A program made the position numbers and the translations under genes. A DNA stretch of 14,865 nucleotides from a virus (taxonomy: Duplodnaviria > Heunggongvirae > Uroviricota > Caudoviricetes), in IMG/VR virus record IMGVR_UViG_3300022073_000076. The stretch is one strand, 5' to 3'. The stretch's first letter is position 1. The number at the start of each line of letters is the position of its first letter. Under the pieces are notes generated by a model. It had not been told where the DNA came from. It did no database searches and worked only from the letters and a program-made list of their open reading frames with translations. Shown here piece by piece: positions 2,059 to 14,865 of the stretch.

Positions 2059-2116
2059 AAAAAGGGCGGCAGAGCAGTCACGGAGTAAAACTGATACCGC
2101 CAAACGTCACCAGAAA
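2059..2116 (-). ncRNA. dicF: DicF small RNA (antisense inhibitor of ftsZ translation), processed from the dicB-operon transcript; 3' end is an intrinsic terminator
   Basis: Reverse complement of 2059-2116 reads TTTCTGGTGACGTTTGGCGGTATCAGTTTTACTCCGTGACTGCTCTGCCGCCCTTTTT, which matches DicF as I recall it: GC stem (GGCGG..CCGCC) followed by a U-run. Lies between ydfC and dicB as expected. Confidence 0.8.
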
Positions 2117-9770: not shown

Positions 9771-9800
9771 GTTAATGATTGCGTCGGTTTGAAGAACAGA
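9771..9800 (+). promoter_or_regulatory. Putative cspB promoter -10 element, transcription start and cold-box-like element at the 5' end of a ~160-nt 5' UTR
   Basis: GCGTTAATGATTGCGTCGGTTTGAAGAACAGAC resembles the cspA -10/start/cold-box arrangement as I recall it (GCTTAATGCACATCAACGGTTTGACGTACAGAC). It lies ~160 nt upstream of the cspB ATG. Confidence 0.4.
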
Positions 9801-9943
9801 CGATATACGAAGTAGTTTACTAAAGCAGTTCTCATTTCAGGTGTTATTCACTTATTCCTTCTTTGAGTCTCTCCAATTAAGTACGAAGTCGTTTCTGTTA
9901 TGCAAACCATTTATGCCGAAAGGCTCAAGTTAAGGAATGTAGA

Positions 9944-10159
9944 ATGTCAAATAAAATGACTGGTTTAGTAAAATGGTTTAACGCAGATAAAGGTTTTGGC
10001 TTTATTTCTCCTGTTGATGGTAGTAAAGATGTGTTTGTGCATTTTTCTGCGATTCAGAATGATAATTATCGAACCTTATTTGAAGGTCAAAAGGTTACCT
10101 TCTCTATAGAGAGTGGTGCTAAAGGTCCTGCAGCAGCAAATGTCATCATTACTGATTAA
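9944..10159 (+). CDS. cspB: CspB, 71-aa cold-shock protein
   Basis: ORF 9944..10159 (+): [74 protein letters not shown]1/RNP2 motifs KGFGFI and VFVHF. AAGGAATG-type Shine-Dalgarno. Confidence 0.95.
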
Positions 10160-10440
10160 AATTCATCGCTCGTCTGTATACGATAACGAAGAAGGCTGAT
10201 GCCTGAGTAGAGATACGGACAGAGTAGTGAATATTGGATCTCTTTAATAAAAAGTAAGGAGGTCCAATACATGAAACAATGGCTAGCATATTTGGCAAAA
10301 TCTTAATCAGGAAAAGTATGCTAACCATTGTGGTGAAGTGCAGGTTTGCTGCATGAATAGTTTTACAGCAGAAGCTAACTGCTGGCATGGCAAAACAAAG
10401 TGCGTAAGTGGATGACTCCCACAAAAAGCACCACAATCTC

Positions 10441-12673: not shown

Positions 12674-12700
12674 GTTAATGGTGTTCTGGTTTGTTACAAA
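12674..12700 (+). promoter_or_regulatory. Putative cspI promoter -10/start region, paralogous to the cspB promoter motif
   Basis: CATGCGTTAATGGTGTTCTGGTTTG (12669-12693) shares ATGCGTTAATG..GGTTTG with the cspB upstream region (9768-9789). It lies ~140 nt upstream of the cspI ATG, consistent with a long 5' UTR. Confidence 0.35.
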
Positions 12701-12830
12701 TTTATCTGAAGCAGTCATTGTTATAATTTTATTATTTGTACCTCTTGAGATTTCCTTGTTGGTTTTTCTCTCTGATATTTTTTTTCGGACCATTCTGCCC
12801 AAGGGCTAATTTCTTCAAAAGGTAATAATT

Positions 12831-13043
12831 ATGTCTAACAAAATGACTGGTTTAGTGAAATGGTTTAACCCTGAAAAAGGTTTTGGTTTCATCACGCCGA
12901 AAGATGGCAGCAAAGATGTGTTTGTCCATTTCTCAGCAATTCAGAGCAACGATTTCAAAACATTAACTGAGAATCAGGAAGTTGAATTTGGTATTGAGAA
13001 CGGACCTAAAGGTCCTGCCGCTGTTCATGTAGTGGCGCTTTGA
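12831..13043 (+). CDS. cspI: CspI, 70-aa cold-shock protein
   Basis: ORF 12831..13043 (+): [70 protein letters not shown]. Confidence 0.95.
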
Positions 13044-13131
13044 GGTAGACAATATTACAAACCATATTCACTTTAGATGCCCGTGTTGTCATGGTTCCCA
13101 GTATAGAACATCATCTTTTGATGTTTCTGAC

Positions 13132-13352: not shown

Positions 13353-13544
13353 GTGGTAGTGCCAGCGATGACTGGAGTTAACACCATCATGCGTGAATAT
13401 CCAAATGGCGAAAAAACACACCTTACTGTAATGGCCGCAGGGTTTCCATCTCTGACCGGAGATCATAAAGTCATTTATGTAGCCGCGGATCGACATGTTA
13501 CTTCAGAAGAAATTCTGGAAGCAGCAATAAGGCTCTTGAGTTGA
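13353..13544 (+). CDS. 63-aa small ORF (possibly YnfQ, a cold-shock-associated small protein); precise start uncertain
   Basis: ORF 13353..13544 (+): MVVPAMTGVNTIMREYPNGEKTHLTVMAAGFPSLTGDHKVIYVAADRHVTSEEILEAAIRLLS. Candidate starts: GTG 13353, GTG 13359, ATG 13368, ATG 13389. Preceded by a 14-codon upstream ORF whose stop overlaps GTG 13359. Protein-like composition. Confidence 0.45.
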   Translation: MVVPAMTGVNTIMREYPNGEKTHLTVMAAGFPSLTGDHKVIYVAADRHVTSEEILEAAIRLLS

Positions 13545-13715
13545 TTTGATGCTATTGCATTGATAATTCAGGAAAATTCTCTTTGTCTGTTTGTGTAAAA
13601 TTTAGACTATCGTATGTTGATTATTGCGATGTTTCATCTTATCTTTTACACGTTTGCACCATATAATCGACTTACTGTGTAACTGGAAAGTCATAACAGA
13701 CTAAAAGAGGAAATG

Positions 13716-13889
13716 ATGAATATTGAAAACTTAAAAACAAAAGCAGAAGCAGATATTTCTGAATATATAACAAAAAAAATTATTGAACTTAAGAAAAAGA
13801 CCGGGAAAGAAGTTACCAGTATTCAGTTTACCGCACGGGAAAAAATGACGGGTCTTGAAAGCTATGATGTCAAGATTAATTTAATCTGA
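13716..13889 (+). CDS. gnsB: GnsB, 57-aa GnsA/GnsB-family small protein
   Basis: Hand translation from the ATG at 13716: MNIENLKTKAEADISEYITKKIIELKKKTGKEVTSIQFTAREKMTGLESYDVKINLI, stop TGA at 13887-13889. AAGAGG Shine-Dalgarno at 13705-13710. Closely resembles GnsA/GnsB as I recall them. Confidence 0.9.
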   Translation: MNIENLKTKAEADISEYITKKIIELKKKTGKEVTSIQFTAREKMTGLESYDVKINLI

Positions 13890-13916
13890 TGTATTCAATA
13901 ATAAAATTTATCCATA

Positions 13917-13942
13917 AACCTCGTTTTTACGGGGTTTTGTTA
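13917..13942 (+). terminator. Intrinsic terminator after gnsB
   Basis: CCTCGT-TTTT-ACGGGG hairpin followed by TTTTGTT. Confidence 0.6.
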
Positions 13943-14040
13943 TATTTGAATGGTTCCGAATATCTAAATCACAATTGTTGATGGTTTTTATTAAACCAAT
14001 GCAGTCCGGCTCAGGAGTGAGAGAAGCCGGACGTTATGGT

Positions 14041-14451
14041 TTAGCGTGGTAAGATCTGTGTAGTTTTCTGGATGCTTTCAGTAAATAGTAATGAATTATC
14101 AAAGGTATAGTAATATCTTTTTTGTTCGTGGATATTTGTAACCCACCGAAAAACTCCTGCTTTAGCAAGGTTTCTTCTGTATTCCTGAAATGTGATCTCT
14201 CTGGATTTCAGCTTATTAGAGGTCGTTTCTATAAGATGCCTATCCTTTGAAAATTTGACAGACACAATGTTTTTTAGGCCCTTTAATAACACTGTATTAT
14301 CATTTTTTAATACAATATGAACATTCTCTGTGGCTAAATAGTAAATGTAATGTGAGACATTGTGACGTTTTAGCTCAGAATAAAACCATTGATAGTTTAA
14401 ATCGTTTCGAACTTTATCAAATATTTGTTTAAAAATGACTACCTGATCCAT
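14041..14451 (-). CDS. ydfO: YdfO, 136-aa DUF1398-family prophage protein
   Basis: ORF 14041..14466 (-). Preferred start is the internal ATG at 14451 ([52 protein letters not shown]..), preceded by GGAAGG. The upstream ATG at 14466 lacks a Shine-Dalgarno. Confidence 0.8.
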
Positions 14452-14508
14452 AGATAAACCTTCCATGTGATATGAGGGGGCGTAGTCTGCACGATTATCT
14501 AAATTGCT

Positions 14509-14742
14509 TCAATCTGGTCTGACCTGTTTTCTGAGCAATTCAGTAATGTCACTCTTTTCTTTGTTTGCTTCAGAAGAAACTCTTTTTTCTGAGCACAGTC
14601 TCCGGCGGCAGGCTTCAATGACCCAGGCTGAGAAATTCCCGGACCCTTTTTGCTCAAGAGCGATGTTAATTTGTTCAATCATTTGGTTAGGAAAGCGGAT
14701 GTTGCGGGTTGTTGTTCTGCGGGTTCTGTTCTTAGTTGACAT
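14509..14742 (-). CDS. ynfO: YnfO, 77-aa small protein with a ribbon-helix-helix (Arc/MetJ/CopG-like) DNA-binding signature
   Basis: ORF 14509..14742 (-): MSTKNRTRRTTTRNIRFPNQMIEQINIALEQKGSGNFSAWVIEACRRRLCSEKRVSSEANKEKSDITELLRKQVRPD. Basic N-terminus, then a beta-strand-like RNIRFP, helix, Gly turn, helix pattern. Lies 57 nt upstream of ydfO on the same strand. Confidence 0.7.
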   Translation of the reverse strand: MSTKNRTRRTTTRNIRFPNQMIEQINIALEQKGSGNFSAWVIEACRRRLCSEKRVSSEANKEKSDITELLRKQVRPD

Positions 14743-14865
14743 GAGGTTGCCCCGTATTCAGTGTCGCTGATTTGTATTGTCTGAAGTTGTTTTTACGTTA
14801 AGTTGATGCAGATCAATTAATACGATACCTGCGTCATAATTGATTATTTGACGTGGTTTGATGGC

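Follow-up and report, generated by a model that had tools for sequence, protein, structure and literature searches.

Two short genes lie next to each other on the minus strand near the end of a 14,865-nt window of tailed-virus DNA (the window being the whole stretch that was analysed), and they raise the question of whether the two form one functional unit. The initial annotation had read them as a coupled two-gene module with a toxin–antitoxin (TA)-like architecture, a small ribbon-helix-helix (RHH) protein being encoded upstream of a larger one. As a type II TA or abortive-infection system, the pair would work by YdfO inhibiting growth, the tail of YnfO neutralizing it and the RHH domain repressing the operon. 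The analysis below leads us to consider ynfO and ydfO as probably two separable accessory genes of lambda-type prophages and not a TA pair.

The arrangement itself was reproduced: there are two co-oriented reading frames, ynfO upstream of ydfO, with 57 nt between them (Table 1). The gene names are also right, as bases 13900–14865 are 100% identical to DNA of K-12-derived strains, in which this segment is annotated as ynfO and ydfO of the Escherichia coli Qin cryptic prophage. The length of the gap is counted from the start of a 136-aa ydfO product. The longest open reading frame at ydfO spans 14041–14466 on the minus strand (141 aa); the 136-aa start is the ATG at 14449–14451, a Shine-Dalgarno-like GGAAGG is located 7 nt upstream of it (14459–14464), and YdfO homologues begin with MDQ or MAQ, in agreement with the shorter form. 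A small DNA-binding-type gene placed upstream of a larger one on the same strand, at such a distance, is what first speaks for a TA system.

Table 1 Features of the ynfO–ydfO locus, in coordinates of the window.
Feature	Position	Strand	Description
GC-rich hairpin	14004..14032	-	Just past the ydfO stop, between convergent gnsB and ydfO
ydfO CDS	14041..14451	-	136 aa, DUF1398, orphan (alpha2-beta3)x2 fold
ynfO–ydfO spacer	14452..14508	-	57 nt, in frame with ynfO, stop-free after the ynfO TGA
ynfO CDS	14509..14742	-	77 aa, YlcI/YnfO (DUF3950) family; phrog_949; annotated ynfO in K-12
PdhR-like box	14512..14528	-	AACAGGTCAGACCAGAT; overlaps the last ynfO codons, 61–77 nt upstream of the ydfO ATG
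ynfO codons 50–77	14512..14595	-	Hypervariable C-terminal tail, Qin class (CSEKRVSSEANKEKSDITELLRKQVRPD)
Qin-specific junction segment	14526..14579	-	54 nt; 613 nt in lambda (YlcI-type tail and lambdap79/ybcW-like gene)
ynfO codons 13–49	14596..14706	-	Arc/Mnt-like, putative ribbon-helix-helix core
ynfO codons 1–12	14707..14742	-	Basic N-terminal arm
Imperfect inverted repeat	14812..14844	.	ATCAATTAATACG / CGTCATAATTGAT; 13-nt arms, 7-nt gap; candidate operator

Along the plus strand, the lysis genes, cspI, ynfN and gnsB are followed by ydfO and ynfO, both on the minus strand, and then by nohA, a Nu1-type small terminase gene, again on the plus strand. The pair, lying on the minus strand amid plus-strand neighbors, is thus antisense to the late operon. 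The earlier placement in a moron zone, with the lysis genes on one side and packaging on the other (here nohA), proved correct, and the region is AT-rich, the GC content being 30–36% over ydfO compared with 45–51% in the lysis genes. Prophages hold defence and addiction genes in this zone, and the neighboring gnsB carries an addiction-module toxin annotation, both of which favor a TA assignment; RelBE is also encoded within the window. The genes and their families are already known. The statement that neither has an established function holds as well, in that a 2024 survey of the y-ome still lists both as uncharacterised (PMC11551758).

YnfO scores above the curated cut-offs of two family models, with 75.6 bits for Pfam DUF3950 (cut-off 25; E = 2.7e-21) and 36.6 bits for NCBIfam YlcI_YnfO_N (NF041551; cut-off 30). 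Proteins of this family are 61–77 aa long. Residues 1–49 are almost invariant in all classes of tail, both sequence and length vary after residue 49, and the tails differ by phage class. A conserved core followed by a variable tail resembles a type II antitoxin. Among variants, the first 49 codons include up to 22–23 with synonymous-only differences against 5 with amino-acid changes; between Qin and a divergent Stx-associated prophage the counts are 22 and 5 of 49. Because synonymous-only codons far exceed amino-acid-changing ones, the core is conserved as protein and not merely as DNA. Judged by this codon pattern, ynfO is a real coding gene with a core under purifying selection at the protein level.

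The initial annotation had ascribed a clear RHH pattern to YnfO, which is borne out in part. The core can be read as a basic arm and the strand motif NIRFP, followed by two helices that a glycine-containing turn connects; helices are predicted at residues 20–31 and 35–50, and a further one in the tail at 57–73, in a low-confidence AlphaFold2 model that was computed on a YnfO–YdfO fusion as a single sequence (pLDDT 37). However, the similarity to known RHH proteins is faint. Using hhalign with a small set of RHH sequences (Arc, Mnt, CopG, NikR, ParD and RelB), YnfO aligns with them in register, although the score is low (E = 0.007, probability 5.5%); no RHH match came from HMM searches, either of the PDB or, at E ≤ 10, of Pfam, and BLASTP of YnfO against Arc gave no match. 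Since the core is nearly invariant, the alignment has no depth and yields no reliable 3D model. We regard the RHH fold as likely.

The assignment of ydfO to DUF1398 also stands: YdfO passes the curated cut-off of this Pfam family (PF07166; YdfO/YbcV/YcgX) with E = 1.7e-46 and is essentially what the NMR structure 2HH8 shows, so that a DUF1398 structure has been at hand since 2006. The structure predictions that had been proposed for both proteins came out unequally, with a poor model for YnfO (above) and a confident one for YdfO, an orphan fold of two alpha2-beta3 repeats (AlphaFold2 on a 28-sequence alignment, pLDDT 90). The fold of 2HH8 has no structural relatives, toxin-like or otherwise, YdfO has no match at E ≤ 0.001 in the viral structure library BFVD, and neither YnfO nor YdfO matches a defence model of PADLOC-DB v2 at E ≤ 1. 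The positions of YdfO that are at least 90% conserved among the 28 sequences are L, G, Y, T, N, A, V, W and M, with no Asp, Glu, His, Cys, Lys or Arg among them, which argues against an enzyme. This lack of conserved catalytic-type residues, together with the lack of a toxin fold or family match, weighs against a TA system, as do two observations that bear indirectly on toxicity: YdfO itself was produced for NMR (2HH8), and an over-expression clone of ybcV, a 79%-identical paralogue, was scored in a viable-cell screen (PMC2853380). The lambda homologue of YdfO, lambdap78, is non-essential, as CRISPRi knock-down leaves lambda plating unchanged (PMC10695390). Of the complete E. coli genomes, about three in four carry DUF1398. 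In a set of 1.84 billion, 200 cluster representatives match it at E ≤ 0.001, many of them fragments; the detectable family is therefore small.

Whether the two families travel together was addressed by a survey of viral contigs. A homology-based sample of loci for YnfO contained near-identical loci only and was dropped as biased. The contigs were instead scanned with a degenerate DNA pattern derived from the conserved ynfO core, which avoids Qin-biased sampling, and the resulting unsorted sample comprises 77 complete DUF3950 genes, 72 of them at loci informative for DUF1398. A DUF1398 gene is adjacent at 22 of these 72 loci, about 0.5 kb away at 7 and absent from 43. The tails of the 77 genes fall into six classes. 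In the Qin class (77 aa), DUF1398 is adjacent downstream in every case (22/22), a constancy that again favors TA; in the lambda class it is found about 0.5 kb downstream in 7 and is absent in 2; and in the other four classes it is absent throughout (41/41), and what follows there is bor, a small ORF on the opposite strand, or directly Rz with the lysis genes. Searches of the phage collection gave 43 records with DUF1398 and 155 with DUF3950, and Stx/HK97-type phages carry DUF3950 without DUF1398, adjoining HNH-terS-terL.

DUF1398 also occurs without a YnfO partner. A 134-aa E. coli paralogue, presumably ycgX next to bluR, follows BLUF-EAL and MerR-family genes, and two more distant members are located in unrelated chromosomal contexts with no YnfO-type partner. 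Thus, the co-occurrence and synteny on which a coupled module depends are not found: the families are separable in both directions. Because they are not co-inherited, an outcome that the initial annotation had itself named as speaking against it, the TA reading is unsupported. A natural YnfO–YdfO fusion (P0122, 233 aa, 761 member sequences) was considered as well, but the contigs from which it derives keep the TGA between the genes, so the fusion is a gene-calling artefact of two ORFs that are merely in frame.

A comparison with lambda and the DLP12 prophage points to the origin of the tight spacing. Lambda holds both families, in the form of the DUF1398 gene lambdap78, whose annotation uses an over-long GTG start (177 aa), and a YlcI-type ORF of 64 aa (NC_001416, complement 48109–48303) located roughly 200 nt away from the right-hand cohesive end, which bears no annotation in the reference records J02459 and NC_001416. 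Between the two, on the opposite strand, sits lambdap79. DLP12 carries the same set as ybcV-ybcW-ylcI. In lambda and DLP12 the two families are therefore separated by some 0.65 kb that includes a gene on the other strand, compared with 57 nt in Qin, and this split is difficult to reconcile with a TA operon.

Qin and lambda align by blastn in two blocks, window 14865–14580 with lambda 48426–48141 (97.6% identity) and window 14525–14022 with lambda 47527–47023 (84%). The second block starts within the last ynfO codons (QVRPD, stop), so that the end of the Qin tail and the whole 57-nt spacer are homologous to the region upstream of the lambda DUF1398 gene. Given the 54 nt between the blocks in Qin and the 613 nt in lambda, the comparison suggests that the close ynfO–ydfO spacing is the scar of a deletion or replacement relative to lambda; either arrangement may be ancestral. 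This, too, argues against a TA pair, as part of the supposed antitoxin tail would come from former DUF1398 upstream DNA.

The regulatory sequences around the pair bear on whether it is a single transcription unit. The PdhR-like box in the 3' end of ynfO is homologous to a box found upstream of ybcV in DLP12 and lambda. A gSELEX study assigns this sequence to ynfO/ydfO as a PdhR site and gives one for ybcV/ybcW as well; the mRNAs of ybcV and ybcW are down about tenfold in a pdhR mutant (PMC7660256). On the basis of this homology, ydfO probably retains a regulatory region of its own. No sigma-70 consensus promoter for ynfO or ydfO was found in the scanned region 13600–14865, and no terminator-like site was found in the 57-nt spacer, the RNA fold of which is no more stable than that of shuffled sequences (z +1.45) and includes no stable hairpin. 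With neither a terminator nor a stable structure in the spacer, co-transcription of ynfO and ydfO in Qin is probable, and read-through from ynfO into ydfO is plausible beside any start inside the 3' end of ynfO. The hairpin just past the ydfO stop (-21.9 kcal/mol, z -5.6, 0 of 200 shuffles as stable) is the probable end of the transcript, although it lacks a canonical U-tract on the minus strand. Upstream, the inverted repeat begins about 70 nt from the ynfO ATG; it is kept in all lambda-type cos loci, whereas HNH-type phages have no such repeat in front of the gene. Such a repeat could serve as an operator, as a TA operon would have. Probable co-transcription and the 22/22 adjacency in the Qin tail class run counter to separability, and a functional link could have been acquired.

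Expression data from the literature concern both ydfO and its paralogue. ydfO is up 116-fold by qPCR, transiently, after ionic-liquid shock (PMC4077768), it is among the Qin genes altered by DicC induction (PMC11430063), and ybcVW is raised after DNase intoxication. Some further reports were set aside. A published claim of protection from oxidative stress by over-expressed YdfO (PMC4077768) is rejected as a gene-name mix-up, because the paper cited for protection treats YfdO of CPS-53 and ydfO is unmentioned in it. The ylcI mutations that two evolution studies list resemble noise from the mapping of paralogues.

Our preferred explanation is accordingly that of two separable genes, which we consider probable. 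In this explanation the right end of a lambda-type prophage would carry ynfO and ydfO as morons, both read in the direction opposite to the late operon. The traits of morons seen here are the inter-module position, the AT-rich composition, the hairpin past the ydfO stop, the presence of DUF1398 at only 29 of 72 loci and the dispensability of lambdap78; variable presence applies to ydfO alone, ynfO being near-constant. ynfO would encode a small, probably Arc/Mnt-like DNA-binding protein kept almost constantly at the packaging-gene boundary. ydfO would encode a non-enzymatic, orphan-fold protein and would be one of several cargo genes that can replace one another in the interval from the lysis genes to ynfO. 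The slot beside ynfO holds DUF1398 in Qin, lambda and DLP12. A deletion or replacement of about 560 bp relative to lambda and DLP12 would have produced the in-frame juxtaposition at 57 nt in Qin-type prophages, removing the opposite-strand ybcW-like gene and allowing the ynfO frame to run on into DNA that had previously preceded the DUF1398 gene. YnfO may then be a repressor made in the lysogen, acting on itself, at the boundary of the packaging module, or both. ydfO may still be transcribed from its own PdhR-linked region, plus read-through from ynfO, and YdfO may bind a host or phage partner, as opposed to being a toxin.

Of the alternatives, the one that survives best is that YnfO is a dedicated regulator of the ynfO–ydfO transcript, the pair forming a small, autoregulated and non-toxic accessory module. 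The shared strand, a spacer free of terminator and hairpin with the only hairpin after ydfO, the candidate operator upstream of ynfO and the strong, transient inducibility of ydfO (PMC4077768) are all consistent with such a module, and its compact arrangement is common, with at least 80% of a 966-bp query covered in 2663 of 5426 complete E. coli genomes. However, most of the YnfO homologues that share the invariant DNA-contact residues lack a downstream DUF1398 gene, and regulation of ydfO therefore cannot be the core job of the family. In addition, the candidate operator is absent in HNH-type phages, and ydfO keeps the PdhR-box region that also lies upstream of ybcV, the mRNA of which depends on PdhR. 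We therefore regard this alternative as unlikely.

A second alternative places the function of ynfO at the packaging boundary. YnfO as an Arc/Mnt-like repressor expressed in the lysogen, or simply the antisense transcription of its gene, would insulate the terminase or HNH gene and cos, or would act on superinfecting relatives. The insulation would be against leaky late transcription, and ydfO would be an unrelated neighbor. Several pieces of evidence suggest such a role: (i) A packaging gene lies divergently upstream of the ynfO homologue in 59 of 60 loci; 48 of them have a Nu1-type small terminase gene there, at a typical distance of about 385 nt, and 11 an HNH endonuclease gene at 17–29 nt, and annotated phages of the Stx and HK97 types are organized likewise. 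(ii) The ynfO start codon is about 200 nt from the cohesive-end site (cos) in both Qin and lambda. (iii) Strong purifying selection acts on the core in phages that differ in their type of packaging. (iv) A YlcI/YnfO protein is listed in capsid-forming satellites with their own terminase (PMC13612085). However, the lambda-type and HNH-type loci share no common upstream DNA motif, no promoter is predicted, and a constant position could simply mark a boundary of mosaic recombination. A packaging-boundary function is rather improbable in our estimation.

We also considered a broader proposal, in which YlcI/YnfO, the product of a gene invariably adjoining the packaging module, is an unrecognised Arc/Mnt-like lysogen repressor of the lambda family that silences the terminase, HNH or cos cleavage or hinders superinfecting relatives, and that has captured control of YdfO in Qin-type prophages; we hold this to be doubtful. 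The idea of YnfO as an Mnt-like repressor of a nearby antirepressor gene was rejected as a general rule, because KilA-N/antirepressor genes are found only in some loci and are absent from most classes. Weakest of all is the original claim of a functionally coupled TA-like module, which is not supported in view of the separable families, the lambda layout, the spacing scar and the absence of a toxin-like fold in YdfO, and which we regard as very unlikely.

A tidy pair of a small RHH-type gene and a larger gene in a prophage is thus insufficient for calling a TA or defence system. Compared with lambda, the ynfO–ydfO layout is a scar between two independently distributed genes, and the main practical value of the present analysis is that it averts mis-filing of this pair under TA or defence. 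Two points remain of mild interest, namely that lambda-type phages encode, at their packaging boundary, a small protein that is strongly conserved, its lambda copy being unannotated in the reference record, and that DUF1398, with a structure from 2006, is widespread in E. coli and has no structural relatives. Neither touches a long-standing open question.

With type II TA systems that have an RHH antitoxin, such as RelBE, the pair shares the order of genes, a small DNA-binding-type gene before a same-strand gene of about 130 aa, and with their antitoxins YnfO shares the conserved N-terminal core and variable C-terminal tail. Unlike in these systems, the YnfO and YdfO families are not co-inherited, the spacing in Qin arose by deletion or replacement, and the orphan fold of YdfO bears no relation to those of known toxins, while indirect evidence (the NMR production, lambdap78 and ybcV) speaks against toxicity. 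Another parallel for YnfO is provided by Arc and Mnt of phage P22, which are likewise small, with a basic N-terminal arm and a glycine-containing turn between two helices (predicted ones in YnfO), and whose genes also belong to a temperate phage and lie within its late region. YnfO has the N-hydrophobic-R-aromatic-P strand motif in the form NIRFP, which corresponds to NLRWP in Arc and NFRMP in Mnt. The overall similarity is weak, as described above, and unlike Arc and Mnt the YnfO family has no consistently adjacent antirepressor gene.

For ydfO, the parallel is with lambdoid morons such as bor. Bor is an outer-membrane lipoprotein that confers serum resistance, whereas no signal sequence is seen in YdfO, judged by eye. 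ydfO lies on the same strand and in the same zone as bor in lambda, and the two kinds of gene share an AT-rich composition, variable presence among related phages and dispensability for lytic growth. The closest counterparts remain the right ends of lambda and DLP12, in which, as in Qin, both families are found between Rz/bor and cos-nu1 with order and orientation kept. The first 49 residues of the lambda YlcI-type protein are identical to those of Qin YnfO, and the lambda DUF1398 protein is 79% identical to YdfO; the Qin YnfO tail, unlike that of lambda and DLP12, is of a different sequence and longer.

In phage lambda, an ORF of the YlcI/YnfO family (DUF3950) lies close to the right cohesive end, at a distance of approximately 200 nt, and its residues 1-49 are identical to YnfO. 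Purifying selection acts on this family. The lambda reference records J02459 and NC_001416 carry no annotation for the ORF. The DUF1398 gene of lambda, lambdap78, is called 'head protein' in RefSeq, and its phrog_413 label is the same. Because its homologues begin at Met42 (MAQVAIF) and the gene was found to be non-essential by CRISPRi (PMC10695390), both the N-terminal extension of the annotated product and its name look unsupported.

A 233-aa protein cluster (P0122; 761 member sequences from metagenome-derived protein sets) appears to fuse DUF3950 to DUF1398. This candidate was rejected as an artefact: in the DNA of the two underlying contig loci a TGA still separates the genes, and the gene caller evidently took it as a sense codon. 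In several E. coli strains (H10-H12, matches among complete genomes), the DUF1398 gene is interrupted by an IS1 element and ynfO is intact. YdfO in the window differs from the solved protein (PDB entry 2HH8) by one residue, with Leu (..QILPR) rather than the Phe (..QIFPR) of the 2HH8 construct at position 134 of 136. Increased oxidative-stress resistance on YdfO over-expression has been stated in the literature (PMC4077768), citing Wang et al. 2010; we discount this statement as a gene-name mix-up, since the cited work concerns YfdO of the CPS-53 prophage and nowhere mentions ydfO.

Given the RefSeq label of gnsB, the moron zone in which ynfO and ydfO lie already has a gene labelled as toxin-antitoxin. 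The hairpin between gnsB and ydfO may serve as a bidirectional transcript end. Nearby, ynfN is intact in the window, whereas it is marked as a frameshifted pseudogene in one K-12 RefSeq record.

Coordinates of features in the window, in the lambda right-end locus (L002) and in related loci
Feature	Location	Strand	Remarks
DicF sRNA	window 2064-2115	-	Rfam, above gathering score
cspA-type thermoregulator leader	window 9783-10175	+	Rfam, above gathering score; by position that of cspB
cspA-type thermoregulator leader	window 12685-13070	+	Rfam, above gathering score; by position that of cspI
ynfN	window 13353-13544	+	63-aa ORF, GTG start
gnsB	window 13713-13889	+	RefSeq: 'GnsA/GnsB family addiction module toxin'
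GC-rich hairpin	window 14004-14032		strong (z -5.6); gnsB and ydfO convergent
YdfO Leu134 codon	window 14047-14049		residue 139 in 141-aa ORF numbering
PdhR-type box	window 14512-14528		overlaps last ynfO codons
lambdap78	L002 2543-3076	-	RefSeq: 177 aa, GTG start
YlcI/YnfO-family ORF	L002 3610-3804; NC_001416 complement 48109-48303	-	64 aa
lambdap79	lambda 47738-47944		ybcW-like; absent from window
IS1-split DUF1398 gene (example)	NZ_CP117971.1 2611147-2612889
P0122 source loci	L215 1274-1975; L216 427-1128

Lambda has an opposite-strand gene upstream of lambdap78, lambdap79, which is missing in Qin; a bioRxiv preprint of 2026 whose subject is an NADase immune domain (10.64898/2026.09.04.749371) names it six times. 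The PdhR-type box in the window is homologous to one between ybcV, the DUF1398 paralogue of ydfO, and ybcW in the DLP12 prophage, hinting that the DUF1398 paralogues are under the control of the pyruvate-sensing PdhR.
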